Shown: positions 4,332 to 53,846, numbered from the stretch's first letter. The stretch: 64,000 bases of DNA from Rhizobiaceae bacterium (GCA_045047085.1 JASFYT010000034.1:2098-66097), one strand, 5' to 3'. Program-made: numbers and translations. Notes: generated by a model from the sequence alone, not told the origin.

Positions 4332-4334
4332 GGG

Positions 4335-22392: not shown

Positions 22393-22414
22393 TAACTCTA
22401 TGCTGACGACCACA

Positions 22415-22879
22415 CTAGCTCCGGGCATTATATTTCAGGTCAACCTGATTGATCGCTTCAACATTTCCAGTGGAGCGTCCATTCACATCAAACTCATTGG
22501 CAAGCCAGGAATCAGCAATGGATTTGGCCAGTTCAGCCCCGATCACTCGCGCGCCCATGGTGATAATCTGGGCATTGTTTGAGGTAGCTGCTTTTTCGGC
22601 AGAATAGGAATCATGTGTAAGCGCAGCACGAATACCCGGCACCTTATTGGCGGCGATACAAACACCAATTCCAGTACCACAACACAATATTGCCCGCTCA
22701 AAGGTTCCGTCCACAATGCCTGAGCAAACGCGGTCTGATAGATCTGCATAAAATTCTGCACCACCACCTGCAGGCCGCGAAAGTTCGACAACCTCAAGTC
22801 CTTCACGAGATTTCAGATACTCAAACAAATCATGTGCCAGAGGTTCGCCTGCACTATCACCTGCAATTGCCAGTTTCAT
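22415..22879 (-). CDS. rpiB: RpiB/LacAB-family sugar-phosphate isomerase (EryI-like)
   Basis: 154 aa with [25 protein letters not shown]...[13 protein letters not shown]. Confidence 0.85.
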
Positions 22880-22899
22880 AGTTATATCCTTTTCAATTT

Positions 22900-23670
22900 C
22901 TAAAGTATTGCGGCACAGCGCGCGAGAATTTCAAGATAGCTGTTCACATCCCATGCAGACCGCCCGATAAACAACCCATCGATATAATCGCAGGCTATCA
23001 GCTCCTCGCAATTGTCAATGTTCACACTGCCTCCATAAAGGCAGGGAATTTTTTGCCCCAACATTTGCTTGGCCAGATTGATAATTATTCTGTGTTGTTG
23101 GTTTGCGTATTCTGCATTTGCGGGTATGCCATTCTCTCCAATCGCCCAGACAGGCTCATAGGCGAGCAATATCGGTGCGACTTTTTGTTCACCACTCAAA
23201 TGTCCCAAAGCACCTTGTACCTGCGCCAAAAGAACTTCCTCGGTACGGCCTGCTTCACGCTCATCAAGCGTTTCGCCGATGCAAATCAATGGAATCAGGC
23301 CGTGGCGCACCGCCGCTTCTGTCTTAAGTCCGACCGTCTCGTTAGTTTCGCCAAAATGCGCCCGCCGTTCAGAGTGACCGAGTTCTACCAAATCCAGTTC
23401 ACAATCTTTCAGCATTAATGGTGAAATCTCGCCAGTCCACGCGCCACAATCAGCCCAATGCATATTTTGCGCACCCACCTTTACTGAAGTGCTGCGCAAC
23501 ATAGCCTTTACTTCCCGTGTGGTGGTAAAGGGTGGAACAACAAAACGCTGAATGCGCGAGTCACGAACCTCGTCAGCAACAACCAGGCCACTTGCAAACT
23601 CCCGCGCTTCAGCAAGCGTTTTATTCATTTTCCAACTGGTTCCAATCCAGATATTGATAGATTTGGTCAC
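22900..23670 (-). CDS. tpiA: triosephosphate-isomerase-family protein (TpiA / EryH-like)
   Basis: 256 aa with [24 protein letters not shown], and AYEPVWAIG. Confidence 0.85.
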
Positions 23671-23684
23671 GGTTTATCCTGTCG

Positions 23685-24116
23685 TTAGATATTTAAATCA
23701 TTAATGCCGGTATCGATATGCGGTGCCCAAAATGCGATGGATTCTGCAATTTGCGGAATAACTTCGCAGTCATTGGGTTCGCGCTCTTTGAACGAGAGTT
23801 CAAGACAGATTTCATTAATCTTGAACCAATCCACGTAATAGCGCCGCACATCTGGATCGGGGTGTCCAAAACGATTGAGCCTGCCATAAGGTCCAGTCAT
23901 GCCAAAGGTAACCTGCACAACAGTCCGCCTTTGAGCGCCCTGCATTTCACGGGTCAACCGCCGTACAAGCGAAGCCGGCCAACTGGGATTGATAAACTCA
24001 TGGGTGAGTTGTATATCGCGGATTTTGAGATCATGGGCTATGGTATCAACCGGATCTTTTATCTCAGCAAAGTGATTAACCAGCGGATTGGTGTTCAAAG
24101 AAAGAGTATAACTCAT
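23685..24116 (-). CDS. xylose-isomerase-like TIM-barrel protein (EryC-like) with a large in-frame internal deletion; probably non-functional
   Basis: The 143-aa ORF aligns with both ends of the 311-aa paralog at 45370..46305 (N-terminal ~100 aa and C-terminal ~42 aa). The central ~168 aa are missing (junction YYVDWFK|INEICLELSFKEREP). Confidence 0.7.
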   Translation of the reverse strand: MSYTLSLNTNPLVNHFAEIKDPVDTIAHDLKIRDIQLTHEFINPSWPASLVRRLTREMQGAQRRTVVQVTFGMTGPYGRLNRFGHPDPDVRRYYVDWFKINEICLELSFKEREPNDCEVIPQIAESIAFWAPHIDTGINDLNI

Positions 24117-24117
24117 T

Positions 24118-24978
24118 CTAACCTCCCCTTTTTTTGCGGGAATACGAAAAATCTGGAATTATATAATCAGGAACAGCTCTGAGTTCCCTGCATTCCGCAA
24201 CAATTTTTGCGTCACTCATCTCCGCATGAATGCCGGTGCGCACCAATGCAGTCGCAAAACCTGCAGCCTGTCCGCCTTTGATATCATGCGCGGGACTATC
24301 GCCGATGCATAAAATTTTCTTAGGATCGGGTTTACCCAAAATTTCATACGCTTTATCATAAATCAGGGGATGGGGTTTTCCGATCCATTCAACTTTCCCG
24401 CCCAGGTCCTCATAAAGTTTGGCAATCCGGCCAGTGCTGAACATAGTTCCCTTTGAAGTGAGTTTTATCATATCCGGGTTGGTACAAAGACATTGCACAC
24501 CGCGGCGCGCCGGTCCTTCCAAAATACTTTGGTAAGCCTCCAGCGGAATATCGCCTTCACGGCAACTGACCATAATAATCAATTCGGCCTCATCAGAATT
24601 TTGCGTAACACTTAACGGTAATCCAGCAATCGATGAAGTATCGTCATTCAACGCAATCACCAAAACTTTGGCACCTGCCGGTATCGTATTTCCAATCCGT
24701 TGTTCCAGATATCCAAAGGCTACTTCCCCGGACGAAAGAACCATTTCAAAGCTGTCCCGCGCAAACCCACTTGTCACCAGACGAGTATTATTTGGTTCAG
24801 ACCGCCTGCCTGAATTTGAAATCAGGATGATACATTTTCCCATTTTCGCCAGACGTTTCAACGCCATCGGAGCGCGGGGATACGCACCCTCCCCACTTAA
24901 CAATACGCCAAACTGGTCGATCAAAAACACGTCATATTTATCAGTGAGTGCTTCAAGATCGGTTAAAGACTGGTTCAC
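24118..24978 (-). CDS. HAD-superfamily hydrolase (subfamily IIA-like)
   Basis: FLIDQFGVLL (DxxG nucleophile motif), ILISNSGRR, and IGDSPAHDIKGG. The GTG at 24978 overlaps the upstream TGA; the longer track ORF would overlap the kinase by about 100 nt. Confidence 0.7.
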   Translation of the reverse strand: MNQSLTDLEALTDKYDVFLIDQFGVLLSGEGAYPRAPMALKRLAKMGKCIILISNSGRRSEPNNTRLVTSGFARDSFEMVLSSGEVAFGYLEQRIGNTIPAGAKVLVIALNDDTSSIAGLPLSVTQNSDEAELIIMVSCREGDIPLEAYQSILEGPARRGVQCLCTNPDMIKLTSKGTMFSTGRIAKLYEDLGGKVEWIGKPHPLIYDKAYEILGKPDPKKILCIGDSPAHDIKGGQAAGFATALVRTGIHAEMSDAKIVAECRELRAVPDYIIPDFSYSRKKRGG

Positions 24979-26240
24979 TTGTTCATTCCAAACCTTGCCA
25001 GCCGTGCCGTGCCGTATGCAGCTTCCATATTTAGGGGGACTGCCATTTCCACACCAAGGCGCCGCTCCCTCAATCGCGTCCAAATCAGGTTTTTTGCCCC
25101 ACCGCCAACTGTTCGCAAAGAGGTCAATGTCGGTGCTCCAAGCTCTGCCAGTTTTTGATAAGCCATCGCCTCCACTTCGGCAATCCCTTCTAATAAACCT
25201 TTGAGAAATATGGCTCGGTCGTCCGGTCGCGGAGAAATCCGTGGTTCCAAATTGGGGTCTGAAATCGGAAAGCGCTCCCCGGGCTTTGACAATGGATAAT
25301 AATCCAACCCACTATCGCATTCGGGATCGATGGCGCTGGACAAGTTGACCATCTCCTCGAGTGTAAAATGTTCGAGTAACACATTACCACCGGTATTAGA
25401 TGCCCCACCAGCGAGCCACTGATCAAGAATACGATGGCTGTAAACGCCAGAAGAGGGATCAAAAATTGGAGTGTCAGATAAAATCTTAATGGTCAAAGTC
25501 GTACCAAGCGCGCTGACCCCATCTCCGGGCTTTTCAGCTCCAGTCGCCAGGAATGACGCACAACCATCTGTGGTTCCCGCAACAATTTTTACATGAGCAG
25601 GAAGCCCAAATTCACTTGCCATCGAAGGTAATATTTCAGCAAAAGGTGTCCCCGGCGCATTCACTTCCGGCAACAGCGTTAGATCAAGCCCTGTCTTGGA
25701 AATCCAGTCTGGCCAACACCCCGCAATTGGATCGTATCCGGTTTTCAGAGCATTATTATCATCACTGGCATAAATACCACTTAGCTGTCCGGCTATCCAG
25801 TCAGCCTGATGCACCACACTGGCAGGCTTACAACTTTTCTGAAACATCAGCGCCTTGGCCATACCACTGGTTGGTCCATGGGCCGCACTTTCAAGCGGTG
25901 CATATTGTGCAATTGTTTTAAGGATCGATTTATCCTCGCATGGATCGTTATACATGCGTCCCTGAGCCAGCGGACAACCTTTGACGTCAGTCGGGATCAT
26001 CGTACCCGATGTGCCATCAACGCATATGGCCACCACTTTGGTGCTATCGATCTGGTTCAATGCAGCGCTTAACGCGGTCTTTGCTGCTGCCCACCAAATA
26101 TCAGGGTCACGGTAATTGTTACCATGATCCGCCATCATGGATTTCCCCTCGCCGACCACATCTCCCTCGTGGGACATAGCGATAGCACGCGCACCGGATG
26201 TGCCTAAATCAAGCCCGACATAGATCGCATCATTCGGCAT
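24975..26240 (-). CDS. FGGY-family carbohydrate kinase (ribulokinase/xylulokinase-like)
   Basis: VGLDLGTSGARA N-terminal motif and the C-terminal TVGGGAKNLIWTRL. Likely ATG at 26240 (MPNDAIYVGLDLG). Confidence 0.85.
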   Translation of the reverse strand: MPNDAIYVGLDLGTSGARAIAMSHEGDVVGEGKSMMADHGNNYRDPDIWWAAAKTALSAALNQIDSTKVVAICVDGTSGTMIPTDVKGCPLAQGRMYNDPCEDKSILKTIAQYAPLESAAHGPTSGMAKALMFQKSCKPASVVHQADWIAGQLSGIYASDDNNALKTGYDPIAGCWPDWISKTGLDLTLLPEVNAPGTPFAEILPSMASEFGLPAHVKIVAGTTDGCASFLATGAEKPGDGVSALGTTLTIKILSDTPIFDPSSGVYSHRILDQWLAGGASNTGGNVLLEHFTLEEMVNLSSAIDPECDSGLDYYPLSKPGERFPISDPNLEPRISPRPDDRAIFLKGLLEGIAEVEAMAYQKLAELGAPTLTSLRTVGGGAKNLIWTRLRERRLGVEMAVPLNMEAAYGTARLARFGMNK

Positions 26241-27312
26241 TGAGCGCCTTTCGATATTTTTCCGCATCCCAATCCAGAAGTTCCAAATTTTGTTCGTGGG
26301 TCAAATAGCAAAGCTCCGCGTCCACCGGTAGACGCAGCAGCACATCTACCAAGCATCGCATCAATGCATGGGCGCCGCTGCTCGCATCCCTGCGAACCAA
26401 AACGCCCTGCTCCGGTACAATCAGAAAAACCGGCGCAGGAGCACCAGTTTTCAGTACTCTTGTCTTTGCCTGAATTGGCGATTCATCGTCCGCCAACGCC
26501 GTTGCACCGATACCACAAAAAATCACATGGTCAGGATAAAGGCTGCCTGATGTGGCCTGTTTCACCCGAACAGGATCAAGCGCCAACTGATGAAGCATCA
26601 GATATTCAGGTAACACATACTCGCTCGATTGCGCCAATTCCTCCAGAGACGTCAGATCAGGCGCGACTTCAGGCTGGCTGTCGATTGCCAGCCGCTTATG
26701 CACTTCAATTAACAGCGCGTGAGCCTGCTCAACACTATCACCCGCGACAATCACTCCATGATTACCAAGAACAACTACGTTGGTCTTTCCATCAAGTCTC
26801 TGGATAACAAGATTGGCAAGGGTCGCACCCGGTTTTACATATTGAACCAGCGCCCAGTTAAGCCCCGCAAGTGTTGTTGCAAGCAATTCCTCACGCTCCA
26901 CTTGCACGGCATGAACGATGGTGTGAATGCAGTGAGCGTGAAGAACTATTTTCTGAGAAAAAACCGCATGAAGGCTGGTCTCAATTGATGGGCGAAGATC
27001 AAGCCCGCCAGGTAACAAAAATTCAGCCGGCTGGTCTGCACGCGCTTCGCCAGCAAGCATCGAGCGCCGCATTTTCAGCAGATCAACCGGAACAAATATA
27101 TCTTTGTCTTCAGCATCAGCCAGCAATGTTCCCGATGCCTTAATCCACATCACATCGCCATCCTTAATGGATGTATTCCCTCCCGCTGATTGAACTAGCA
27201 TTGGGTCTGCGCCTATCTCGGCAGAAACCTTTCGGAGTGCTGCAAATTCTTCAAGTTCAGGCTGATTTAACGGAGTCATTTTCGTACCATACTTTAAATT
27301 TGGATTTTTCAT
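26230..27312 (-). CDS. class-II aldolase/adducin-domain protein (N-terminal-half type of the bifunctional aldolase/SDR family)
   Basis: SAGGNTSIKDGDVMWIKASG and HAHCIHTIV motifs. The start is uncertain (27312 or 27279). Confidence 0.65.
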   Translation of the reverse strand: MKNPNLKYGTKMTPLNQPELEEFAALRKVSAEIGADPMLVQSAGGNTSIKDGDVMWIKASGTLLADAEDKDIFVPVDLLKMRRSMLAGEARADQPAEFLLPGGLDLRPSIETSLHAVFSQKIVLHAHCIHTIVHAVQVEREELLATTLAGLNWALVQYVKPGATLANLVIQRLDGKTNVVVLGNHGVIVAGDSVEQAHALLIEVHKRLAIDSQPEVAPDLTSLEELAQSSEYVLPEYLMLHQLALDPVRVKQATSGSLYPDHVIFCGIGATALADDESPIQAKTRVLKTGAPAPVFLIVPEQGVLVRRDASSGAHALMRCLVDVLLRLPVDAELCYLTHEQNLELLDWDAEKYRKALNAE

Positions 27313-28807
27313 TATTGCTCATATGCAGACCGTGTTTGGTCCGACGATATAAAATGTCTTCAACTGAAATTGCCCATTCTTTTTCACACAAATAGCGCAC
27401 TTCGCTTTGATATAATAGCGGCCCAAACTTGATACCCAAACCGTCCAGCGATCCCGCCCGAGACAGTATCTCATTCGAACGCGTTCCATAGAGCCGCGCA
27501 TAATGTGTGGCGAGATCATCAGGCAACCACGGATATTCACGGAGTACAGATTTCAGAAACCCATCAAAATCAGCATCCGGAAATTCCCCACCGGGAAGTA
27601 TTGCTTCGGCAGTCCAGTCCTTACCCATATCCGGGAATGTTTTATCCAGACGATGCATCGCTTGTTCAGCGAGTTTGCGGAACGTCGTGATCTTGCCACC
27701 AAAAATGTTCAGTAATGGTGCGCCACCATTTGTATCAAGATCAAAAACATAATCGCGGGTCACTGCGCTGGGATTGCCCTTGCCATCATCAAATAATGGT
27801 CGCACACCGGAGAAGCTTTCAAGTACATCTTTACGGTTTAATTTCTGTTTGAAATAGCGGTTTACAACAGCAATTAGATAATAGATCTCGTCCTCATCCA
27901 CGGTGACATCTTCTGGGGCACCTTCATATGGAATATCGGTCGTGCCAATAAGCGCTTTATCCCCTTCATAAGGGTTTATGAATATCACGCGCTTATCTTT
28001 GTTTTGTACCAGGTAGGCCTGTTCCCCATCCCAGAATTTGGGAACAACAATATGACTGCCCTTGATCAACAGCACTTCACGCGTGGAATTGGAGCCTGCA
28101 ACGCGGCTGATAATGTCATTCACCCACGGCCCGCCTGCATTAACAATTGCACGCGCTGTAATCTCAGATTTTTCATCCGACATGGAGTTTGTAATCTCGA
28201 CCTTCCACACATCACCTTCCCTGCGCACGGTGTTACAAACGGTACGGGTCAGAATTTTTGCGCCCTTCTCAGCAGCATCGATAGCATTCAGCATTACAAG
28301 GCGGGCATCATCAACCCAACAGTCAGAATATTCAAACCCCTTGGAGAAATGATCCTTGATTGGGGCACCCTTTGGATCATTCCGTAGATTGAGCACACGC
28401 GTTCCGGGCAGCTTTTTGCGTCCTCCCAGGTTGTCATACAAAAACAAACCCAGGCGGATCAGCCACGCGGGTCTGTCCTGAGGGCTATGGGGTAAAACAA
28501 ATCGCATTGGCCAAATGATATGTGCTGCCGAGTTCAACAAAACTTCACGTTCAATCAAGGATTCACGCACTAAACGAAATTCATAATATTCCAAATAGCG
28601 CAGCCCACCATGAACCAGTTTTCCAGATCGTGAAGACGTCCCCTGAGCCAAATCATCCTTTTCACAAAGTACAACCGATAGTCCACGACCAGACGCATCC
28701 CGCGCAATACCAGTTCCATTGATACCGCCACCTATTATAAAAAGGTCAACCGTATCTTTTGCATCAACTCTCATATGGGCAATGTTTTGATTGGGCTTGT
28801 CGTTCAT
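27257..28807 (-). CDS. glpD: FAD-dependent glycerol-3-phosphate-dehydrogenase-family enzyme (GlpD / EryB-like), copy 1
   Basis: 516 aa with DLFIIGGGINGTGIARDASGRGL, GKLVHGGLRYLE, and the C-terminal ILYRRTK block. Confidence 0.85.
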   Translation of the reverse strand: MNDKPNQNIAHMRVDAKDTVDLFIIGGGINGTGIARDASGRGLSVVLCEKDDLAQGTSSRSGKLVHGGLRYLEYYEFRLVRESLIEREVLLNSAAHIIWPMRFVLPHSPQDRPAWLIRLGLFLYDNLGGRKKLPGTRVLNLRNDPKGAPIKDHFSKGFEYSDCWVDDARLVMLNAIDAAEKGAKILTRTVCNTVRREGDVWKVEITNSMSDEKSEITARAIVNAGGPWVNDIISRVAGSNSTREVLLIKGSHIVVPKFWDGEQAYLVQNKDKRVIFINPYEGDKALIGTTDIPYEGAPEDVTVDEDEIYYLIAVVNRYFKQKLNRKDVLESFSGVRPLFDDGKGNPSAVTRDYVFDLDTNGGAPLLNIFGGKITTFRKLAEQAMHRLDKTFPDMGKDWTAEAILPGGEFPDADFDGFLKSVLREYPWLPDDLATHYARLYGTRSNEILSRAGSLDGLGIKFGPLLYQSEVRYLCEKEWAISVEDILYRRTKHGLHMSNNEKSKFKVWYENDSVKSA

Positions 28808-28816
28808 TCTAATATC

Positions 28817-29857
28817 TCAGCAAGGATTTCGCGGAGGTTCGCCAGATATAAAGCGGCGGACCTCTTCGGCGGCTTGTTCAGCTGCATAGGTAATAGTACG
28901 AACAGATGCCCCCGCAATGTGTGGTGTCAGGGTAACATTTTCCAATTTCAAGAGAGGCCAGTCGGCAGGCACGGGCTCCACCGCAAAAGTTTCCAACATA
29001 GCGCTGCCAAGGTTACCATCAGTCAAGGCCTCGTAAAGCGCATCATAATCACAAAGAGGCCCTCGCGCCGTATTCACAAAAAGCGCACCCTGTTTCATTT
29101 TGGCAAAGCTTTCCTTGTTCATGATGTGACGGGTTTCTTCGGTCACTCTTGGATGAAGGGTGACCACATCTGAACTCTCCAGCAAGGTATCAAGACTGAC
29201 TAGCTCAACACCAGCATCCCCATCATGTGGGTCCAATTGAACATAAGGATCATTAACAAGAATTTTCGCTCCGAACGCCCGCAATAACCGCACTACTTTA
29301 GTACCTATATTGCCATAACCAATCACACCGACCGTGAGTTCATTTAGTTCTCGTCCAGTGATATCAGCACGATATAAATCGCCGCGCCAGTCCCCTTTGC
29401 GCAATGCCTCATGCCCCAAACGAATTTTTCGAGTTTCAGCCAGAATGGCGCCAATCGTAAACTCCGCAACAGCACTGGCATTTCTACCCGGTGTGTTAAC
29501 AACAAAAATTCCATGGTCGCGCGCCGCGACCATATCAATATTCACCGGTCCACCCCGTGAAACTGCGATCATTTTGAGGTTCGGGAGCCTTTCCAGCATT
29601 TCCCGCGACATCGGCGCCAGATGGGTCACGAGAATTTCTGCATCCCCAATAAAATCAATTACATCTTCCGCTGTGCCAAAATACTCGTACAACCCCTCAA
29701 TACCACCTTCAGAATTTCCATTTTTCATGGGTTCATCGGGCCAATTATATTTTTGGGTGTTTGTGGTAATGAGCCCACCGCATATCTCTTGCAGTTTTTC
29801 ATCAAACACTTCCGGCAACATGAAATGATCGCCAATTATTGCAATCTGTCTGGTCAT
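28817..29857 (-). CDS. D-isomer-specific 2-hydroxyacid dehydrogenase family protein
   Basis: VGVIGYGNIGTKVV Rossmann motif and TPHIAGAS. The ATG at 29857 overlaps the upstream TGA (ATGA). Confidence 0.8.
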   Translation of the reverse strand: MTRQIAIIGDHFMLPEVFDEKLQEICGGLITTNTQKYNWPDEPMKNGNSEGGIEGLYEYFGTAEDVIDFIGDAEILVTHLAPMSREMLERLPNLKMIAVSRGGPVNIDMVAARDHGIFVVNTPGRNASAVAEFTIGAILAETRKIRLGHEALRKGDWRGDLYRADITGRELNELTVGVIGYGNIGTKVVRLLRAFGAKILVNDPYVQLDPHDGDAGVELVSLDTLLESSDVVTLHPRVTEETRHIMNKESFAKMKQGALFVNTARGPLCDYDALYEALTDGNLGSAMLETFAVEPVPADWPLLKLENVTLTPHIAGASVRTITYAAEQAAEEVRRFISGEPPRNPC

Positions 29858-31419
29858 TCTATCTCTCCTGTTCCCTGAGAACTGGCAAGGCCTGCCCAAA
29901 CAGGCGACAATGTTTGGCGTGCGGTGTAATATTGTGGGAATAATTTGTCATATATATCTGCGAGATCGGGGTCTGGCGTTTCAACAGAACCAAGCAATGG
30001 CGTCACCCAGACATCAATGCAATCTTCAATTCGCTCATAGGCACCGACTGCAACTGCAGCCATCATTGCAGCCCCGGCGGCACCTGCTTCTTCGCGGGAG
30101 GAGCATCTAACGGGCCTGTTTAGAACAGCACTCAGAATACCACGCAACGGGTCAGATTTTGCCGCACCACCGGTGAGACGTACTTCATTTGGCAAATCAC
30201 CCATGGCCTCGTAACAATCTCGCGCAGCCATACCCAATCCCTCGACTACGCCGCGCATCATATCTCCAAAACGGTGGGATGAATTGAGACCGACAAAGCC
30301 AGCCCGTGCATCATTGCTAACAAAAGGACCACGCTCTCCAGCCTCTGAGATATAAGGGTGGTATAACATACCCCCAGCTTTGCCGGAGTTAATCCAGCGA
30401 TCCACATGGGTAAGCAATTCAGAATGTGTGACCTTAACCCCAAGGTCTGAAATCAAATCGGAAGCAACGTTTAGCATCCAGTCAATATTTAAGGTCGAAG
30501 CCATATTGGATTGTATTTGAGCCACCAAACCATCAATTGGCAGCGCCATTACATAACCAGTTTTTTCCTCATTTAGCTGCACATCCTGCACTAAAGTGGC
30601 GCGCATATGCATTCCGGTTGAACCCACAATGGTACAACCGGCATTTGTATCTTTGGTATAAATACCCGCCCCCAGCGCGGTACAAACCACATCAACATAC
30701 CCAAGCGAAACAGGTGTTCCCTGTAGCAAACCTGTTTGCGACGCCGCATCAACACTCAAACCGTGCATGATTTTTGTACCATCGATAATCGGCGGCAACA
30801 TGCTACGTCTGGAAGTAAGACCTAGAATTTCGATGACTTCGTCATCATATTCACTTGTGCGGTAATTCCCGAAGGTGAAACTTGCCTCTGATGGGTCAAC
30901 CACCCGCTCACCTGTGAGGTTGAAATAGAGCCAGTCCTTGCAATGGAAAGCAGTCTCGGCTCCGTCAATAAGCTCTGGCATATCCGATTGCATATAGGCC
31001 AATTGTGCGCCCTGCTGGCACGAATTAAGCCCCGCCCCGGTTTTTTCAAACCGTAACCTGTCTTCAGGCTTTGCTCGTAAACGTTGCACCTGAGGTGCAG
31101 AACGTGAATCAAGCCAAAGCCAGCCATCTCCAACGGACGCTCCATTCTTGTCAATAAGCCATGTGCCATCGCCCTGCCCTGTCACTGCCAAAGCGGCAAC
31201 TCGTTCAGCAAGATTTGGAACTTTCTCCGCCAAATCCCGGAGGGTTTTCGTGCAATCTTCCCACGTCTGACCAAGCGACTGACTGGCTGTACCATCAGCG
31301 AGCACAGTATATCTATTGGGAACGGAAGCAGCAGCAATCTGTCGCCCCGAAAGATCAAATGCCACGGATTTAACAACCGATGTGCCAGAATCTATCCCAA
31401 TGAGAATGTCCTTGCTCAT
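29854..31419 (-). CDS. FGGY-family carbohydrate kinase (EryA/L-xylulokinase-like)
   Basis: 521 aa with IGIDSGTSVVKSV and LTGGAAKSDPL. Confidence 0.85.
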   Translation of the reverse strand: MSKDILIGIDSGTSVVKSVAFDLSGRQIAAASVPNRYTVLADGTASQSLGQTWEDCTKTLRDLAEKVPNLAERVAALAVTGQGDGTWLIDKNGASVGDGWLWLDSRSAPQVQRLRAKPEDRLRFEKTGAGLNSCQQGAQLAYMQSDMPELIDGAETAFHCKDWLYFNLTGERVVDPSEASFTFGNYRTSEYDDEVIEILGLTSRRSMLPPIIDGTKIMHGLSVDAASQTGLLQGTPVSLGYVDVVCTALGAGIYTKDTNAGCTIVGSTGMHMRATLVQDVQLNEEKTGYVMALPIDGLVAQIQSNMASTLNIDWMLNVASDLISDLGVKVTHSELLTHVDRWINSGKAGGMLYHPYISEAGERGPFVSNDARAGFVGLNSSHRFGDMMRGVVEGLGMAARDCYEAMGDLPNEVRLTGGAAKSDPLRGILSAVLNRPVRCSSREEAGAAGAAMMAAVAVGAYERIEDCIDVWVTPLLGSVETPDPDLADIYDKLFPQYYTARQTLSPVWAGLASSQGTGEIE

Positions 31420-33655: not shown

Positions 33656-33658
33656 AAT

Positions 33659-34516: not shown

Positions 34517-34526
34517 TGGCCTCTCC

Positions 34527-35450: not shown

Positions 35451-35567
35451 ATTTCATTTTTCCGCCGCCCAATATTGCAAAGGGAGACCGTCTTAGGTTT
35501 TACAAGTTGTATTAAAAGCGAACCCGCCTCGTTCGGAGAAAGAAGAGGCGAGCCCGGTCGGGAGGCT

Positions 35568-37013: not shown

Positions 37014-37030
37014 AGGTATTCCTCCAGTTT

Positions 37031-37999: not shown

Positions 38000-38162
38000 G
38001 TAGCCACACCTGTTGGTTTTTGTAATAATTTTCAGCCTATGTAATTTTTTACACTTAAGCGGTTATCTGTCAAGCCATTACAATGAAATGAAAAGTAAGC
38101 ATGCTCCACATGCCGGCCGCCTGCAGGTTATTCACAACGAGAAATTATCAAAGTTTTCTGTT

Positions 38163-39311
38163 TTAAGAAGCGGTGCGCAGGATTTCAATCAGCTTGGATT
38201 CCTGCAGATACACGGGATTACCCTTCATCGATGATGATGAAAGAGAGGCAATGGCAATCTCATCAAAATCTTCGGAACTGACACCCACATCGCTCAATGA
38301 CGGCAAACCACAGCGTCGCGACCAAGCAGCCAATTCATCAAAGGAGATCTCGGACTCAACACCAAGAGCGTCAGCAATCCAGTGTTGAATTTTATGAAAG
38401 CGTTCTCGTATTTGTGTCGGTAATTCCGGTACAGAGAAATTAGATTTCAAAACATGGGGTAAAAGTATCCCGCAGATAACTCCATGAGGAGCAGCTGCCC
38501 TCCCCCCAATAACACCTGCAAATCCGTGAACAGCTCCCAATCCAGAATTTGCCAACGCCAAGCCTCCGCAATGGCTTACCCATGCCAGATCATCACGGGC
38601 CTTTTCATCTTCACCCTGCATAAGACGCACCAAAGCCAATAATCCTAGTGGTATAGCATCTCGGCAAAGCGCATCAGAAAACCGATTTGCCTTGCAAGAA
38701 ACATAAGATTCAATCACCTGCGTGACAGCATCAAGTCCACTGGCAAGTGTTACTGAACGTGATGTATTGTCTGTTAAAGCTGGATCAATTATTGCTAAGT
38801 TTGGCAACATACGTACATCCCGTAACGATACCTTGCGTCGATGATCCGGCACTCCAATGACTGCGTTCCTAGTAACTTCGGCCCCAGTTCCCGCCGTCGT
38901 TGGAATTGCTACAAATGGCAAGGGTGGTTGTTCAAGTGCCAAACCTTTCCCAACGACTTCCAGATAATCAAGAATCGGTTTATCGGCAGGAACCAGCGCC
39001 GCAATAGCCTTACCTGCGTCAATAACCGAACCGCCCCCCAGAGAAACTATTACATCGGCCTCAAATTCACGCGCGACCAGTACTCCGTTTTCAATCAGGG
39101 AGATTTCCGGCTCGCTTGCGCAGCTAAATTGTCCAACACGAATACCTTCCCGCTCTAGCGCATCTACCAACCAGACAGCGCGCGCGGGATTTGCACCATG
39201 AACCAGAAAGATATTTTTGCCGAGGGTCGCAATATCTTCGGCAGCCTGCTTGGCACAGCCTCTGCCAAAACGAATGTCCTGCGCAGTGGAAATCGAAAAA
39301 ATGCCTGGCAT
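38163..39311 (-). CDS. iron-containing (group III) alcohol dehydrogenase
   Basis: 382 aa with SLGGGSVIDAGKAIA and the GLGAVHG metal-site region. Confidence 0.8.
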   Translation of the reverse strand: MPGIFSISTAQDIRFGRGCAKQAAEDIATLGKNIFLVHGANPARAVWLVDALEREGIRVGQFSCASEPEISLIENGVLVAREFEADVIVSLGGGSVIDAGKAIAALVPADKPILDYLEVVGKGLALEQPPLPFVAIPTTAGTGAEVTRNAVIGVPDHRRKVSLRDVRMLPNLAIIDPALTDNTSRSVTLASGLDAVTQVIESYVSCKANRFSDALCRDAIPLGLLALVRLMQGEDEKARDDLAWVSHCGGLALANSGLGAVHGFAGVIGGRAAAPHGVICGILLPHVLKSNFSVPELPTQIRERFHKIQHWIADALGVESEISFDELAAWSRRCGLPSLSDVGVSSEDFDEIAIASLSSSSMKGNPVYLQESKLIEILRTAS

Positions 39312-39313
39312 TG

Positions 39314-41077
39314 CTAAATCCTGTCCCCAAATTCCTCTTCGACCACCTCCCGCATGGCGTTCAATATCACCACGACCGAAGCTGCGCCTGGATCAACGTG
39401 TCCCAACGAACGCAATCCCAGCTTGGCAGAGCGTCCCTTTTTTGATTTCATTTGCACAGTCGCATTCTTGCCCTTCTCGGCTCCGTCACATGCAGCCTGA
39501 AGACAGGCGATAATGCTTCCACCAGCCTCCTGTTCGCGCGCGGCGTGTTCAACAGCTGGCGTCCAAGCATCCACCATCGTCTTATCGCCGGGAGCGGCTC
39601 CTCCAAGATCAACAATACCGTTTCTAATTGCATCCAACCATGAAACAAGCGCCATTGAATCCAGATTAAGCCGATCATTCACCGCTTTTGATGCCCTCTG
39701 AAAGGCTGTTCCATATAGCGGCCCCACGGAAGCACCGACGGCATCTAAGAAATTCTTTCCTGCCTTTGCGCACATAACCGATATAGTGACTTCATCTTCC
39801 GAAAGACCATCACGAATAGCACGCCACCCCACATCCATGGCAATGCCATGATCTGCATCACCAATGACACCATCCAGTTCACACAAATACCCCTTATTTT
39901 CTCCAATTTGTTCAGTGATCCGCAGCAGCATTCGACGAAAGATTTCGGGGGTAACATCGCCCTCAGCAATTAAATCTTCTCTCGAAATATCCGACTCAAT
40001 CTTCTTGGTAACCATTGGTGCATGTGAGCGCCGTCGTGGTCTTTGGTTAGGTGAAATTTTGATCTCCCCAACTTGTAAAGCAGCGGTTTCACAGGGATGG
40101 TCCAGCATTTTGATCAACTGATCATCCAGCTTCATTACCGTGACCGAAGCGCCAGCCATTTCAAGCGATGTAACATAATTCCCCACCCAGGATTGATATA
40201 GGGAAACTCCGAGCCCACACAGTCTGCTACGTATTTGGCGATGCAAGATATAAAGTTCCATCAATGATGTTGAACCTAGCCCATTCACCAATACGGCCAC
40301 CCTGTCGCCTTTGCCAAATTCAATATCTGCAACAATCAGATCCATCAACCGGTCTGCAACCGCATTGGCAGGTTCAAGTGTGGTTCTGGAAATCCCAGGT
40401 TCGCCGTGAATTCCCATCCCTACTTCCATCTCATCCGGACCAATCTCGAAGTTCGGTCTACGCGTTTGAGGTAGCGAGCAGGCACCAAGAGCCACCCCAG
40501 CCGACCTCGTCATAGCATTCGCATGCCTCGCAATGAGTTCAACCTCATCCATAGAATAATCCAAATCAGCCGCCGCCCCAGCACATTTAAATACAAAGAA
40601 TGTTCCGGCAATCCCCCGGCGTTCACTAATAATTTTTGCTGAGGCTACATCATCTGTAACTGTGATGGAATTTGCCTTAATACCTTCAGAGCCAAGTTCC
40701 TCTACAGCCATATCAAAATTCATAACGTCACCAGTATAATTTCCATAGAGAAACAACACACCTGCTCCCCCGTCTGCTGCACGTGCTGCATCCATGATCT
40801 GCTCCGGCGAAGGGGAAGCAAACACGTTTCCCACAGCCGAAGCATCTGCCAACCCCTTACCGACATATCCAGAAAACGCCGGCTCATGGCCAGAACCACC
40901 ACCCACGACAATGCCAACTTTGCCCTCGCGTGGACCTTTTATAGAAACCACAGCCCTACCCGTCGCTCCTTCGACACAAAGCATTTCGGGGTGAGCTCCA
41001 ACCATACCATCGATCAATTCCTCAATGACATGGTCGGCATCATTTATCAGCTTTTTTGTCTTCTGCGTATCTATCAT
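39314..41077 (-). CDS. ATP-dependent dihydroxyacetone-kinase-family protein (fused DhaK+DhaL domains); possible triose/tetrulose kinase
   Basis: 587 aa with GGGSGHEPAFSGYVG (DhaK) and GVIGDADHGIAM (DhaL). Confidence 0.85.
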   Translation of the reverse strand: MIDTQKTKKLINDADHVIEELIDGMVGAHPEMLCVEGATGRAVVSIKGPREGKVGIVVGGGSGHEPAFSGYVGKGLADASAVGNVFASPSPEQIMDAARAADGGAGVLFLYGNYTGDVMNFDMAVEELGSEGIKANSITVTDDVASAKIISERRGIAGTFFVFKCAGAAADLDYSMDEVELIARHANAMTRSAGVALGACSLPQTRRPNFEIGPDEMEVGMGIHGEPGISRTTLEPANAVADRLMDLIVADIEFGKGDRVAVLVNGLGSTSLMELYILHRQIRSRLCGLGVSLYQSWVGNYVTSLEMAGASVTVMKLDDQLIKMLDHPCETAALQVGEIKISPNQRPRRRSHAPMVTKKIESDISREDLIAEGDVTPEIFRRMLLRITEQIGENKGYLCELDGVIGDADHGIAMDVGWRAIRDGLSEDEVTISVMCAKAGKNFLDAVGASVGPLYGTAFQRASKAVNDRLNLDSMALVSWLDAIRNGIVDLGGAAPGDKTMVDAWTPAVEHAAREQEAGGSIIACLQAACDGAEKGKNATVQMKSKKGRSAKLGLRSLGHVDPGAASVVVILNAMREVVEEEFGDRI

Positions 41078-41439
41078 GTGACCCTCGATTTCAATAGGCT
41101 AGCCATCTGCCAATCATTCATTGCTGAAAATTAGTACATATTTATTGTTCATCTAGAAACAGTGCAAAATCAACAGCTGGAAAAATTACTCCAAACACTG
41201 ACGTCCCAAGTGCGGTTGTTGTCGTGGTCATCCGTCAGCCATTTGCGTGAAGGAATTATTATGGGTTAACAACCATACCGTCCTAATCAAGCGGGATTGA
41301 ATAACGACACAATACAGGAATATGACATTTTCTTTGGAAGAAGAAACAATTCGGCAATCCATCATTGATACCTGCCTCCACATGAGTACCTGCAGCTTAC
41401 AGTGGTTGGGTATCATATGCACGTGATCGTAATCATGTA

Positions 41440-41484
41440 AAATTCATACAATTGCAAAGTATGTATTGACATTTGTATGAATTT
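41440..41484. promoter_or_regulatory. perfect 12-bp inverted repeat AAATTCATACAA-N21-TTGTATGAATTT (candidate operator) in a divergent promoter region
   Basis: The arms are at 41440..41451 and 41473..41484. The spacer contains TTGACA (41466..41471). It lies about 80 nt upstream of the rpe-like start. Confidence 0.5.
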
Positions 41485-41564
41485 GAGTTGTTTAGAATTA
41501 CCATTTGATTTTCAATTCCCCCGGTCCCCCGGCGCGACATCACGCCCGTCTTGGTAGGAAGAAT

Positions 41565-42257
41565 ATGACCCACGAGGCACATCTCTCGCTTAAGCAAAGT
41601 TGTCGTGGCATCAGTCTGGGTATTTTTGCGGGTGATTTTGGAAATTTCAGAAGCAATATGCAATCAGCCGCTAAATGGGGCTGCAATGTTCTCCACTTTG
41701 ATGTCATGGATGGCCTATTTGTTCCTCAGATGACGGGCGGTCCGGGGTTTGTAAAAGCCCTTAAAGGTGAAATGATCCTTGATGTGCATCTAATGGTTCA
41801 GAAGCCACTGGTACATATCGCATCATATGTCGAAGCAGGTGCGGATATCGTGACAATCCATGCCGAATCTGAAGAACCAGTGGCGGCATTTAAGGCCATT
41901 CGAACTGCTGCTGAGAAATCGGGACGACCGGTCATGGCCGGCATATCGCTCATGCCCGGTACTTCGATTGAGAACATCAAAGAGCTATTTGACTTAAAAC
42001 CCGATCTCATTTTGGTTCTCGCCCTTGATCCTCGAACGAGCGACTCAACTGACGTCACGAAGGCATGTGTCCGGCTTCAGGAAATCAGAACGCTCACGGC
42101 TGAATTCTCCCCAATTCTTGCATTCGATGGCGGTGTCACACTCGACACAATTGCTGAAATTTCAAGTTCATCAGCAGAACTCGTTGTTAGCGGAAGTGCC
42201 GTACTGAAATCAGCAAATCCATCTGAGGCCTTTCGTTTAATGCAAAGTGCTCTCTAG
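41565..42257 (+). CDS. ribulose-phosphate-3-epimerase-family protein (divergent)
   Basis: LHFDVMDGLFVP, DVHLMV, and FDGGV motifs. The usual MSVNPGFGGQ block is replaced by LALDPRTSDS. The ATG at 41565 has an AGGAAG RBS. Confidence 0.7.
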   Translation: MTHEAHLSLKQSCRGISLGIFAGDFGNFRSNMQSAAKWGCNVLHFDVMDGLFVPQMTGGPGFVKALKGEMILDVHLMVQKPLVHIASYVEAGADIVTIHAESEEPVAAFKAIRTAAEKSGRPVMAGISLMPGTSIENIKELFDLKPDLILVLALDPRTSDSTDVTKACVRLQEIRTLTAEFSPILAFDGGVTLDTIAEISSSSAELVVSGSAVLKSANPSEAFRLMQSAL

Positions 42258-42352
42258 CAGGTCAATCCTAATTACCAATAGAGCGCATTTAAGAATTTGG
42301 ATCACTGAGCGCGCGCTCAAAGTACATGTAGTTACTATCAAAGGAAGATAAT

Positions 42353-43234
42353 ATGGCAGACATTGATGACATCAAAGATGGTAAAGACTTTGGTCTGGAC
42401 ACGCCCCAGGACAAGCAGGGATTTTTTCTCAAAGGAAATGCCAACTACGATTGGGGTTTGAAGAACCGCATGAGCCGAATTTTCAATCCGAAAACTGGCC
42501 GCACGGTTATGCTTGCTTTTGATCATGGTTATTTCCAAGGCCCAACAAGCGGATTGGAACGGATTGACCTCAACATCCTTCCGCTCATCGAGCATGCAGA
42601 TGTAATGATGTGCACACGCGGCATCCTTCGTTCTGTAGTTCCACCAACAATCACAAAGCCCGTTGTCATGCGCGCCTCGGGCGGCAACTCGATACTTTCT
42701 GAATTGTCCAATGAAACGATTGCGGTTGACATCGATGATGCCATTCGCATGGGTGCCTGTGCCATGGCAGCACAAATCTATATTGGGTCCGAGTTCGAGC
42801 ACAAATCAATCACCAATGTAATCAATCTCATCGATCGTGGTCAGCGCTATGGTATCCCAACTCTCGCTGTCACCGGTGTAGGCAAAGACATGGCACGTGA
42901 TGCGCGCTATTTCGGTCTTGCAACCCGCATCGCTGCCGAGATTGGCTCACATTATGTGAAAAGCTATTTCGTTGAAGAGGGATTTGAAAAAGTCTGCGCA
43001 GCCTGCCCAGTGCCCATCGTTATTGCGGGGGGTAAAAAGCTTCCTGAAGCTGATGCTCTCGACATGGCCTATAAAGCGATTGATCAGGGTGCTGCCGGGG
43101 TTGATATGGGCCGCAACATTTTCCAGGCCGATGATCCAGTAGCAATGATCCAGGCGGTTTCCAGTGTTGTCCATGATCTGACGAAGCCGGAAAAAGCCTT
43201 GCAGATGTACAATGATCTAAAAGCAAAAGGTTAG
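42353..43234 (+). CDS. lsrF: LsrF-like class-I aldolase-fold enzyme (3-hydroxy-5-phosphonooxypentane-2,4-dione thiolase family)
   Basis: [16 protein letters not shown]...[34 protein letters not shown]...MCTRGILRS...[12 protein letters not shown]...[10 protein letters not shown] tracks E. coli LsrF closely as I remember it. Needs confirmation by alignment. Confidence 0.7.
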
Positions 43235-43322
43235 CAGATAACAGACTCCCAAAACTGGCCCCTAAACCTACGTTTTGGGTTTGGGGCACTTTTTGAAACT
43301 AAACAGACAGTCTCAGTTCGGC

Positions 43323-44954
43323 ATGGAGGTAATCTTGAACTCAAGTGAAATGCAAGATATCAAAGATCTTCTTGTTATAGGTGGTGGTATTAACGGTGTC
43401 GGCATTGCCCGCGATGCAGCCGGCCGTGGTCTGAACGTATGTCTGGCAGAAATGGGTGACTTGGCGGGCGCGACATCATCCGCTTCGACAAAGCTTTTTC
43501 ACGGCGGGCTTCGTTATCTCGAGTATTTTGAATTTGGCCTGGTGCGTCATGCACTCGCAGAGCGGGAAACTTTATTGCGGGCCATGCCGCATATAAGCTG
43601 GCCAATGCGTTTTGTGCTTCCCTACCACAAGGACATGCGTTTTGAGAATTCAACTCCGACATCCCGACTTCTAAATATCTTCATGCCCTGGATGAAAGGT
43701 CGTCGGCCAGCATGGTTAATCAGATTTGGTCTGTTCCTTTACGATCATTTGGGCGGGAGGACTGTTCTGCCGGGAACTTCGACTATCTATCTTCAAAAAA
43801 GTGTCGAAGGTGAAGCCATCAATGACAAGTTTGTTAAGGCATATGAATATTCTGATTGCTGGATTGAGGATTCGCGACTGGTGGTCCTTAATGCTCGCGA
43901 CGCAGAAAAGCGCGGTGCTGAAATATGTGTTCGGACCAAAGTTATATCAGCCATTCGTGTTGACGATATTTGGGAAGCTACTCTTGAGGATGTAAACAGC
44001 GGAAACAGGCGTGTCGTGCGCGCCAAGATGCTTGTGAATGCGGCTGGTCCTTGGGTGGATGATGTTATTCAGAACAAGGCACGACTAAATTCACGCGAGG
44101 GTGTCAGGTTGGTCCGAGGCAGCCACATTGTCACAAAGCGTCTTTATGATCATGACAAATGCTATTTATTCCAGGGCACCGATGGCCGCATCATATTCGC
44201 AATTCCCTATGAAACAGATTTTACACTCATCGGTACGACAGATGCCAAACATTCTGATCTTTCGGAACAACCAATTTGTACAGACGAAGAAAAGCAATAT
44301 CTCGTCGACTTTGCCAATGGCTATCTTAAATCACCGATCTCCGTCGACGACATTGTTTGGAGTTATTCAGGGGTGCGCCCACTTTATGATGACGGTGCGG
44401 AATCTGCTTCAGCTGCGACACGCGATTACGTGATGACCATTGATGATTACGAAGGTGCGCCGTTGTTGAATATCTTCGGTGGCAAGATCACTACTTATCG
44501 GTGTCTAGCGGAAGATGCGTTGGATAAAATCAAAGATTACTTCCCAAACCTCTCAGGTAAGTGGACCGCAGGAATTGCCTTGCCAGGTGGAGATTTTCCT
44601 GTTGATGGCTTTGCTGATCTTACTCAGTCGCTTATTGACCGCTATTCATTTTTGGATACTAAAATGGCCAGCCGGCTCATCAAAGCCTATGGGACCGAGG
44701 CCGCAGGTATTTTCGAAGGTGCAGAAAGCTTTAATGATCTCGGGCACCATTTCGGAGCAGGCTTAACCGAACGCGAGGTTGAGTGGCTCATGCATAATGA
44801 GTATGCTCAGATAGCCGAAGATATCATCTGGCGCCGTAGCAAGCTGGGCCTGCGCCTGTCATCTTCTCAGATCGAATACCTTGAAAAATGGATTCAAACG
44901 AACCTGAACCTCCAGAATCGCAGACGCCTTACCGCTTTGCTTGTCAACCAGTGA
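43323..44954 (+). CDS. glpD: FAD-dependent glycerol-3-phosphate-dehydrogenase-family enzyme (GlpD / EryB-like), copy 2
   Basis: DLLVIGGGINGVGIARDAAGRGL, TKLFHGGLRYLE, and IIWRRSK. The start is uncertain (43323 or 43350). Confidence 0.85.
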   Translation: MEVILNSSEMQDIKDLLVIGGGINGVGIARDAAGRGLNVCLAEMGDLAGATSSASTKLFHGGLRYLEYFEFGLVRHALAERETLLRAMPHISWPMRFVLPYHKDMRFENSTPTSRLLNIFMPWMKGRRPAWLIRFGLFLYDHLGGRTVLPGTSTIYLQKSVEGEAINDKFVKAYEYSDCWIEDSRLVVLNARDAEKRGAEICVRTKVISAIRVDDIWEATLEDVNSGNRRVVRAKMLVNAAGPWVDDVIQNKARLNSREGVRLVRGSHIVTKRLYDHDKCYLFQGTDGRIIFAIPYETDFTLIGTTDAKHSDLSEQPICTDEEKQYLVDFANGYLKSPISVDDIVWSYSGVRPLYDDGAESASAATRDYVMTIDDYEGAPLLNIFGGKITTYRCLAEDALDKIKDYFPNLSGKWTAGIALPGGDFPVDGFADLTQSLIDRYSFLDTKMASRLIKAYGTEAAGIFEGAESFNDLGHHFGAGLTEREVEWLMHNEYAQIAEDIIWRRSKLGLRLSSSQIEYLEKWIQTNLNLQNRRRLTALLVNQ

Positions 44955-45353
44955 CTCACCAGTGCAAATGAGAGGTATCAGACCATGACGAACAGCGGTT
45001 TTAACTTTCAAGCCAACAGTTTGTTTGTTTCATTGAAATGCTCTCTGCACTTTGAATGGACCAATTTCACAATATCCAAATTGCAATCAGTCAACATCGG
45101 TACGGAGACTTCGCCGGTCCAGGCGCCGTTGTCCTTCCAATGCGTGTATTGAGCTCGGACCCTTCATTGATGTAATGGAACATTGCTCTTTAACTGCACG
45201 AATAAGAGGAAAGCTCGGTATGACAAAACACTGAATTCTGTCATCATGGTGAGAGTTAAAAGCCAGCAATCCATTGGCAAAACCCAAGGCTTCGTTGAGC
45301 AGTTTATTCATCTTCCAGCTGGTTCCATTTCAAAGTTTTGCATTGGTGGACAT
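44928..45353 (-). pseudogene. decayed, truncated tpiA/EryH-like gene
   Basis: Starts [21 protein letters not shown]. Other frames continue GAWTGEVSVPMLTDCNLDIVKLVHS...FNETN and then [20 protein letters not shown]. It is collinear with the intact Tpi at 22900..23670 but has at least one stop and two frameshifts, and the C-terminal half is missing. Confidence 0.75.
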
Positions 45354-45369
45354 GCGCCCTCGTTCCTCT

Positions 45370-46305
45370 CTAAATGTTGAGATCTTGAACGCCTGAATCG
45401 AAATGAGGCGCCCAAAAAGCCACACTCTCGGCGATATGGGTGAGCACAAGCCGGTCGTCAGGCTCTCGTTCTTTGAAGCTGAGTTCAAGGCAGATTTCGT
45501 TGTTGTGTGCCCCGCCGGCATGAAGAGCATCGATCAGGAGATCGGGCTGGATCAACCCATTGTCGTTGTGTTCTTTAGTGAATGGGCGATGCCCTCCTTT
45601 ATCCAACAACGATTGCTTGATATGGATGATAGGAGATACAAGCGGTACCGCCTGCGCCCACGAATAGGGATCGTAATCATTTTTGTTTTTGCTGGTTATG
45701 TCACCGTGATCGATGTCGGCCATCATCCACATTGGGATCGCCATATCCATTTTTGTCAAACGGTCCTGCAATCGAAGGCAGCCATCAATGGTCTCGCCAA
45801 ATTCACGTCCAATGCTCATGGGTTCCCAAAAAAGGAATTCCAATCCGACTTGCTTTCCGTGTTCTGCTACCTCCGACCAGGCATCGATCGCTATTTTTGT
45901 CAGTTCTTCTCGCCTAACCGGATCGTCAAAATCGCGATAGGTGAAAATGGCAAATTGAGTTCCTAAAGATTTTCCACCGAGATCTGATATGATCTCCGCA
46001 TTGGTTTTGAACCAGTTGATATAATAACGCCTGACTTCAGCATCTGGATGCCCGAAGTGGTTAAGTCGGCCATAAGGACCGGTCATTCCGGACGTGACTC
46101 GGACCCCAGTTCTCGAGCAAGCATGGTGCATTTGACGGACTAGCCGTGCAATGGTTTTGCCAGGCCAACTTGGGTTGATAAATTCATGGGTGAGCTGCAC
46201 ATCGCGAATCCTCAAATCGGTTGCGATAGTGTAAATTAGATCGTCACAATCAGCAAAACGGTTCACTAACGGATTTGTATTGAGCGAGAGGGTGAAAGCC
46301 ATCAT
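45370..46305 (-). CDS. xylose-isomerase-like TIM-barrel protein (EryC-like), full length
   Basis: 311 aa. It is a paralog of the truncated ORF at 23685..24116 (FTLSLNTNPLVN...THEFINPSWP...MTGPYGRLN.FGHPD...ICLELSFKEREP). Confidence 0.75.
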   Translation of the reverse strand: MMAFTLSLNTNPLVNRFADCDDLIYTIATDLRIRDVQLTHEFINPSWPGKTIARLVRQMHHACSRTGVRVTSGMTGPYGRLNHFGHPDAEVRRYYINWFKTNAEIISDLGGKSLGTQFAIFTYRDFDDPVRREELTKIAIDAWSEVAEHGKQVGLEFLFWEPMSIGREFGETIDGCLRLQDRLTKMDMAIPMWMMADIDHGDITSKNKNDYDPYSWAQAVPLVSPIIHIKQSLLDKGGHRPFTKEHNDNGLIQPDLLIDALHAGGAHNNEICLELSFKEREPDDRLVLTHIAESVAFWAPHFDSGVQDLNI

Positions 46306-47534: not shown

Positions 47535-47538
47535 TTCA

Positions 47539-48390: not shown

Positions 48391-48396
48391 TTCCTG

Positions 48397-53834: not shown

Positions 53835-53846
53835 TTACGTTTTCAC

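Follow-up and report, generated by a model that had tools for sequence, protein, structure and literature searches.

How might erythritol still be degraded by a bacterium whose erythritol locus no longer encodes a complete EryC? This question is raised by a 64,000-nucleotide stretch of DNA from a Rhizobiaceae bacterium (GCA_045047085.1, JASFYT010000034.1:2098-66097), referred to below as the window; it makes up 64 kb of a contig that measures about 100 kb, and all gene copy counts given here cover the window only. The known pathway comprises five steps, EryA-EryB-EryC-EryH-EryI (Barbier et al. 2014, as summarised in PMC5468441), the last three being catalysed by isomerases. A preliminary description of the window proposed that two related polyol loci share a module of these isomerase genes that has decayed reciprocally. 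We found that eryC is disrupted in one locus (locus 1), that the other (locus 2) has a disrupted tpi (eryH) and no rpiB (eryI), that the ancestor was redundant for all three genes, and that the remains of eryC in locus 1 have evolved under relaxed constraint. The history that we consider fairly probable is a reciprocal loss of redundant modules, with erythritol catabolism still running across both loci.

For comparison, 185,579 species genomes were scanned with EryC2, the EryC protein of locus 2, and the best 80 loci were kept; these are mostly alphaproteobacterial, and their EryC identities are 72-77%, except for the nearest. Positional identities and gene orders were derived by running 21 window proteins against the 80 kept loci with tblastn. 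The nearest relatives are three contigs from North Pond sequence data, L081, L001 and L083, with a DNA identity to the window of 82-89%.

In locus 1, the position of eryC is occupied by a 143-aa in-frame open reading frame (ORF) at 23685..24116 (minus strand), the eryC1 remnant, as established by alignment to EryC2 and to the full-length ortholog in L081. Residues 1-100 of the remnant correspond to residues 2-101 of EryC2 (66% identity), and residues 101-143 to residues 269-311 (74% identity). Compared with the 310-aa L081 ortholog, the remnant is short by exactly 501 bp (167 codons), in frame, and the DNA alignment with L081 places the deletion junction near 23816-23821. The deletion reported in the preliminary description is thus real, while its size, given there as about 168 central codons, holds against the paralog EryC2 and becomes 167 against the true ortholog. 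A Pfam scan of the 143-aa ORF no longer detected the TIM-barrel domain, or any other domain. The remnant is separated by 1 nt from the stop codon of the preceding HAD hydrolase gene and by 14 nt from the following tpi1. The junction would carry the microhomology AATG if the ancestral left flank resembled that of eryC2, but L081 differs at this place.

The possibility that eryC1 is a conserved mini-EryC was considered and rejected. The preliminary description had itself named a truncated EryC kept in many genomes as an observation that would speak against decay. The short form occurs on this contig alone; the other short matches are contig-edge partials or frameshifted or differently decayed genes (e.g. 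P0095 from Aliiruegeria), none of them with the junction of the window. A degenerate pattern of the deletion junction, WFKINEIC, gave 0 hits in JGI metagenomes. Judging from the sequence, it is unlikely that the short ORF works as a mini-EryC. Truncated or scrambled EryC ORFs are also present on large contigs of 1.6-3.9 Mb (P0008, P0059 and P0095, one of them annotated in Aliiruegeria sabulilitoris), and eryC decay appears to recur in other genomes. As a separate observation, the closest relative of tpi1 (95% DNA identity) is located on contig L082 (1..1375, corresponding to 23806..22432 of the window), which ends 10 nt short of the eryC1 deletion junction; a contig break beside this junction could reflect strain variation.

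Locus 2 carries the complementary damage. Its eryC2 gene (45370..46305, minus strand) is intact and encodes a D-erythrulose-1-phosphate 3-epimerase of 311 aa, in agreement with the full-length gene first described: EryC2 matches the structure of Brucella EryC (PDB 4k3z) with 541 bits, and Pfam places a xylose-isomerase-like TIM barrel at residues 56-276. This is the only intact EryC in the window, 21 kb away from locus 1. The next gene, tpi2, is a pseudogene (44899..45353, minus strand), as seen from a tblastn search with Tpi1, which followed the remnant from about 45326 down to 44898 through internal stops, and from alignment to the tpi gene of L001. Relative to the latter, tpi2 has acquired a stop codon (TGG to TGA at codon 8, 45330..45332), a +1 insertion at 45164 and a -1 deletion after 45023. 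It lacks the catalytic GHSERR motif, its homology stops abruptly at 44899, which is codon 152, and it is changed at 13 of 72 family-conserved sites, compared with 4 in L001. The gene is therefore the stump riddled with stops and frameshifts that had been noted earlier, and no rpiB follows it.

The place where tpi2 ends is also the end of another transcription unit. An operon of an Rpe-like gene, a DeoC-family aldolase gene and glpD2 (41565..44954, plus strand; Pfam) runs towards locus 2, and the same operon is carried by L083, whose match to the window breaks off at 44902, short of the native glpD2 stop codon by 16 nt. Since homology to L001 ends at 44899 and that to L083 at 44902, a single junction (44899..44902, with an overlap of about 4 nt) fuses the 3' end of glpD2 to the middle of tpi2 at codon 152. 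In the relative, glpD2 is followed by at least 10 kb of unrelated genes, which are absent from the window. The glpD2 gene of the window is without its last 5 native codons, and its new end consists of 18 codons that lie antisense to the tpi2 remnant (44899..44954, plus strand).

Both missing isomerases are intact in locus 1, as initially described. The tpi1 (eryH) gene, coding for a Tpi-like L-erythrulose-1-phosphate isomerase of 256 aa (22900..23670, minus strand), scores 248 bits with Pfam TIM and is 66-75% identical to Tpi of ery loci; the rpiB1 (eryI) gene, coding for a D-erythrulose-4-phosphate isomerase of 154 aa (22415..22879, minus strand), scores 141 bits with Pfam LacAB_rpiB and is 64-74% identical to RpiB of Brucella/Rhizobium-type ery loci. 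RpiB1 also passes the NCBIfam equivalog NF051858 (D-erythrulose-4-phosphate isomerase, DerI/EryI) with 253 bits against a cut-off of 240, and the database names of homologs, D-erythrulose 1-phosphate 3-epimerase and L-erythrulose 1-phosphate isomerase, concur. No second RpiB and no further copy of EryC or Tpi was found anywhere in the 64 kb window. Within these limits it holds that only both loci together provide one intact copy of each of the three isomerases, namely eryC2, tpi1 and rpiB1.

The ancestral state of both modules is preserved in the North Pond contigs. L081, collinear with 33169..22277 of the window, has the order eryA-2HADH-eryB-AldII-FGGY-HAD-eryC-tpi-rpiB (2HADH, 2-hydroxyacid dehydrogenase; AldII, class II aldolase-like), in which eryC codes for 310 aa. 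L001, collinear with 50514..44899, has the order ATPase-[FGGY::HAD remnant]-eryC-tpi-rpiB with tpi and rpiB intact. Both ancestral copies are thus found at full length, the former representing locus 1 and the latter locus 2, on contigs not proven to belong to one genome. The presence of full-length eryC-tpi-rpiB at both loci in contigs of the North Pond relative, which share 85-89% of their DNA sequence with the window, implies that the ancestor was redundant and that the losses in the window are reciprocal, and with the lesions mapped the proposal of a shared, reciprocally decayed module stands. L001 (NVWB01000380.1, 7.3 kb) is binned in a metagenome-assembled genome of Blastopirellula, a planctomycete; it has about 89% DNA identity to the window and genes of alphaproteobacterial type, and is probably a mis-binned contig.

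The shared module was originally even longer. Between the ATPase gene and eryC, L001 has 533 bp that are missing from the window at 46367 (46366..46368, from blastn block boundaries), and these extra bases encode a 204-aa FGGY::HAD fusion (L001 4137..4751) whose N-terminus is 40% identical to the FGGY kinase of locus 1 and whose C-terminus is 57% identical to its HAD hydrolase. This remnant shows that the locus 2 module at first consisted of five genes, kinase-HAD-eryC-tpi-rpiB, like the 3' half of locus 1, and that its decay has been stepwise.

The two modules are not alike enough for a recent duplication. Their DNA identity is about 65%, and alignment of the two eryC genes at the DNA level gave 64-68%, so that recent duplication was not borne out. 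Between the two modules, protein identity is 60-66%, and each protein is 66-79% identical to its closest reference alphaproteobacterial proteins. By these values, the modules are xenologs acquired separately or old paralogs. Neighbour-joining trees of EryC, Tpi and RpiB placed the paralog sets inconsistently, on long branches, and consequently do not decide between duplication and separate acquisition. Of the initial suggestion that two related tetritol/pentitol loci had been duplicated or acquired, the shared module holds. Locus 2, however, is not a second erythritol locus: neither tblastn nor Pfam and NCBIfam comparisons found an eryA or eryB homolog in it. It is a different polyol locus with an isomerase module at its 3' end.

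Locus 1, on the other hand, has the composition of an erythritol locus. According to the ORF listing and Pfam scans, its genes are all on the minus strand in the order regulator, transporter, eryA, 2HADH, eryB, AldII, FGGY, HAD, eryC1, tpi1 and rpiB1. The FGGY kinase gene eryA (29854..31419; Pfam FGGY) is intact, its product being 56-63% identical to positional EryA proteins, including those of Brucella species; eryB (27257..28807; Pfam DAO/DAO_C) is likewise intact and codes for a GlpD-like dehydrogenase that is 65-75% identical to positional EryB proteins, again including those of Brucella species. Upstream are a sugar ATP-binding cassette (ABC) transporter with two ATPases, two permeases and one binding protein (31419..37034, minus strand, from ORF translations) and a SorC-type EryD-like regulator (37031..37999, minus strand; Pfam Sugar-bind), mostly 55-66% identical to regulators in the EryD position. 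The members of an erythritol catabolic locus, an EryA-type kinase beside EryB, EryH and EryI, and an EryD-type regulator with an ABC transporter, are therefore all present, except for an intact EryC, which is found in locus 2 only. Among the compared loci, the classical Brucella/Rhizobium order is eryA-eryB-eryC-eryD...tpi-rpiB, and a Rhodobacterales variant (L002, L003, L009 and L034) has the order eryA-2HADH-eryB-AldII-FGGY-HAD-eryC...tpi-rpiB, which equals locus 1 gene for gene. We thus assign locus 1, by its predicted genes, to the Rhodobacterales type of erythritol locus, with eryA and eryB both intact. The family assignments of EryA, EryB, EryC, EryH and EryI made at the outset hold by positional identities, NF051858 and PDB 4k3z.

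If eryC2 supplies the activity, relaxed constraint on eryC1 is to be expected. Selection was assessed by pairwise ratios of nonsynonymous to synonymous substitution rates (dN/dS) between the window and the North Pond relative. The surviving parts of eryC1 have a dN/dS of 0.27 (0.34 for the N-terminal part), compared with 0.04 for the same segments of eryC2, while fourteen neighbouring genes range from 0.03 to 0.22. The value for eryC2 is 0.06, those for eryB-2HADH-eryA are 0.05-0.13 (eryA and eryB, 0.09-0.13), and the surviving set of eryA, eryB, tpi1, rpiB1 and eryC2 lies at 0.06-0.15. A second test counted changes at alignment columns in which at least 97% of 79 reference EryC proteins agree; these proteins themselves have a maximum of 4 changes and a mean of 0.5. 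EryC2 was changed at 3 of 180 such sites in the window and at 6 of 180 in L001; the full-length EryC1 of L081 was changed at 16 of 180, and the EryC1 remnant of the window at 7 of 89. The changes in L081 include G72C, Y77H and G78V in the invariant GMTGPYGRLN motif, and none of the EryC1 changes is common to the window and L081. Lineage-specific changes amount to 23/269 in EryC1 versus 18/880 in EryA plus EryB (p = 4e-6), and conserved-site changes in eryA and eryB are balanced between the window and the relative. These results show that, from about the time when the two lineages separated, the constraint on eryC1 has been relaxed in each of them. At 121 conserved sites of Tpi1, one lineage-specific change was found in the window and six in L081 (10001..10771), a difference that does not reach significance (p = 0.12), though it may be a sign that the relative is giving up its copies at locus 1 and retaining those at locus 2.

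From these results, the following history may be proposed. The ancestor would have had two eryC-eryH(tpi)-eryI(rpiB) modules, each following an FGGY kinase and a HAD hydrolase gene, copy 1 forming the 3' end of an erythritol locus of the Rhodobacterales type that was complete, and copy 2 that of an unrelated polyol transport/kinase locus. As the isomerases were redundant, one copy of each could be disabled without cost. In eryC1, substitutions at invariant sites would have come first, followed by the in-frame loss of 501 bp that removed most of the TIM barrel; as the lesion is in frame and the operon is tightly packed, it would have no polar effect on tpi1-rpiB1. In locus 2, the kinase-HAD remnant would have been deleted and tpi2 would have gained its stop and frameshifts, lesions that are presumably polar and were located at the end of their own operon; a rearrangement would then have removed the 3' half of tpi2 together with rpiB2 and fused the rest to the end of glpD2. 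In the pathway that would remain, EryA and EryB of locus 1 produce D-erythrulose-1-phosphate, EryC2 of locus 2 epimerises it, and Tpi1 and RpiB1 of locus 1 carry the product on to erythrose-4-phosphate. We infer that eryC2 now serves locus 1. In Brucella, a block of the pathway downstream of EryA depletes ATP and thereby renders erythritol toxic (PMC5468441); where eryA and eryB are active, such toxicity would create pressure to keep an EryC.

Several points weigh against this history. Further copies of eryC, tpi or rpiB may exist outside the 64 kb window. Pairwise dN/dS is an average over the whole divergence and is blind to a recent inactivation of eryA or eryB. L001, L081 and L083 were assumed to represent one relative genome on the grounds of their common North Pond source and similar divergence, yet they are separate contigs. 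The operon that ends with eryC2 is equipped with a SorC regulator of its own, which shares only 26% identity with the EryD-like protein of locus 1, so that co-induction of eryC2 by erythritol is conjectural; a promoter and terminator scan around eryC2 gave nothing above background.

The alternative that survives best assumes no complementation at all. According to it, the EryA/EryB branch is disused, tpi1-rpiB1 are kept for an EryC-independent route in which an alcohol dehydrogenase and a Dak-type erythrulose kinase (38163..41077) deliver L-erythrulose-1-phosphate that enters at EryH, eryC2 is kept for another substrate of locus 2, and the reciprocity is coincidental. Candidate genes are indeed at hand: an Fe-dependent alcohol dehydrogenase gene (38163..39311) and a Dak1-Dak2 kinase gene (39314..41077), both assigned by Pfam, lie directly upstream of locus 1 on the same, minus strand, have homologs of 55-60% identity inside the ery loci of many other genomes, and could form such an erythrulose entry route. 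By analogy with the Mycobacterium threitol/erythritol pathway, eryC would be the sole isomerase gene dispensable for such an alcohol dehydrogenase/Dak route. Locus 2 is moreover under a separate regulator and holds another decayed gene, a fragment of a short-chain dehydrogenase/reductase (SDR) gene at 53394..53834. Nevertheless, both eryA and eryB are intact, their dN/dS values are 0.09-0.13 and they do not exceed the sister lineage in conserved-site changes; active EryA without EryC is toxic in Brucella (PMC5468441), and locus 2 contains no enzyme known to make the substrate of EryC. We regard this alternative as rather unlikely.

Less credible still is the alternative that further intact copies of eryC or of eryH/eryI are present outside the window, so that the decayed genes are ordinary surplus pseudogenes and their complementarity is irrelevant. 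Extra eryR-tpiB-rpiB sub-operons do occur in other bacteria, e.g. Sinorhizobium fredii (PMC3599248), and our view is confined to 64 kb of the approximately 100 kb contig; against this, the window has no third copy, and eryC2 and tpi1 are under strong purifying selection while their partner copies are not, which makes this explanation improbable. Assembly or sequencing artefacts, that is, a collapse at the eryC1 gap or a chimeric glpD2-tpi2 join, might be suspected in what is probably a draft or metagenome-derived contig with a glpD2/tpi2 overlap of only about 4 nt, but they hardly need to be considered, as the eryC1 deletion is exactly in frame with unique flanks and no repeat to collapse, the surviving eryC1 sequence has excess substitutions, and the stop, the two indels and the 13 conserved-site changes of tpi2 are upstream of the junction and independent of it.

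A broader interpretation can be put forward, though only tentatively and with some doubt: neutral reciprocal pruning of old paralogous modules would have turned two separately regulated operons into an obligate partnership, in which erythritol catabolism needs the eryC of a foreign polyol locus. The sister lineage would perhaps be midway, its eryC1, and possibly its tpi1, degenerating though still full length, and the two lineages, taken together, would amount to a natural time series of duplication-degeneration-complementation at the level of operons.

The remaining genes of locus 1, all on the minus strand, are an intact 2-hydroxyacid dehydrogenase gene between eryA and eryB (28817..29857), a gene for a class II aldolase-like protein (26230..27312), that of a second FGGY kinase of about 421 aa (24975..26240) and a HAD-IIA hydrolase gene (24118..24975), the last three assigned by Pfam and NCBIfam. 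These four accessory genes (24118..29857) are embedded in Rhodobacterales-type ery loci and are also found in L002, L003, L009, L034 and L081; two of them, the kinase and the HAD hydrolase, also accompanied the module of locus 2. The rest of locus 2 (46458..57151, minus strand) encodes an ABC ATPase, a HAD hydrolase, a xylulokinase-like FGGY kinase, a binding protein, two permeases, the SDR fragment, an SDR and a glycerol-1-P-dehydrogenase-like enzyme, with a divergent SorC regulator at 56123..57151 on the plus strand. The SDR fragment is a 146-aa ORF (53394..53834, minus strand) that represents the C-terminal half of an SDR (positions 122-234 of 236 of Pfam adh_short_C2) and begins 12 nt past the stop codon of the intact SDR gene; it looks like a third decayed gene of locus 2.

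Elsewhere in the window, a microcompartment-type cluster at 2020..8409 on the minus strand encodes a BMC-domain protein (3711..4331), an aldehyde dehydrogenase and a class III aminotransferase; beside it, on the plus strand, are an APH-family kinase gene and then a 356-aa ORF (8558..9628). The set resembles amino-alcohol-utilisation microcompartment loci. A 768-aa protein encoded at 16073..18379 (minus strand) contains fused large and medium subunits of a B12-dependent diol/glycerol dehydratase. The G+C content of the region is about 48%. Exact-sequence look-ups with both EryC proteins found no match, megablast against plasmid records gave only short matches to alphaproteobacteria with 77-81% identity, and a metagenome scan with the HAD protein yielded only one relative, with 33% identity.

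All components belong to known families, duplicated ery sub-modules are on record, and neither a new enzyme nor a new mechanism is involved. The value of the case is that of a well-resolved and datable example of a familiar process, in which redundancy between paralogous operon modules has been resolved, the ancestral state is kept in a sister lineage and the lesions are mapped to the base. Should the dependency between the two loci be real, it would mean that a pathway can be split across separately regulated operons by neutral loss alone, and that annotation pipelines scoring loci singly would wrongly call erythritol catabolism absent; the in-frame lesion of eryC1 and the polar, terminal lesions of tpi2 would also illustrate that operon position may shape which mutations are tolerated.

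Like the ery loci of Brucella and Rhizobium, which were compared in PMC3599248, locus 1 has positional homologs of all six genes (EryA, EryB, EryC, EryH (TpiA2), EryI and EryD). It differs from them by the four extra genes between eryA and eryC (2HADH, AldII-like, second FGGY kinase and HAD-IIA) and by the destruction of its own eryC, the sole intact eryC of the window being located in another operon 21 kb off. S. fredii has a second eryR-tpiB-rpiB sub-operon, which its authors consider xenologous (Geddes et al. 2013, PMC3599248), and thereby resembles the present case in having two divergent downstream isomerase modules in one genome, one of them outside the erythritol locus; the second module described here, however, also has eryC and kinase/HAD remnants, and the two modules have been reciprocally pruned, whereas S. 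fredii keeps both.

The erythritol-sensitive vaccine strain Brucella abortus S19 bears a deletion affecting eryC. As in locus 1, a natural lesion interrupts the pathway downstream of EryA in this strain (PMC5468441), yet S19 is without a back-up copy and is inhibited by erythritol, whereas here the paralog eryC2 is intact and the deletion is in frame and internal to eryC. The closest general parallel is duplication-degeneration-complementation, or reciprocal gene loss, in which redundant copies are resolved by complementary losses and function then depends on both loci. What sets the present case apart is that the parts divided are genes of a bacterial operon module, not subfunctions of one gene, and that the copies are old paralogs or xenologs rather than fresh duplicates.

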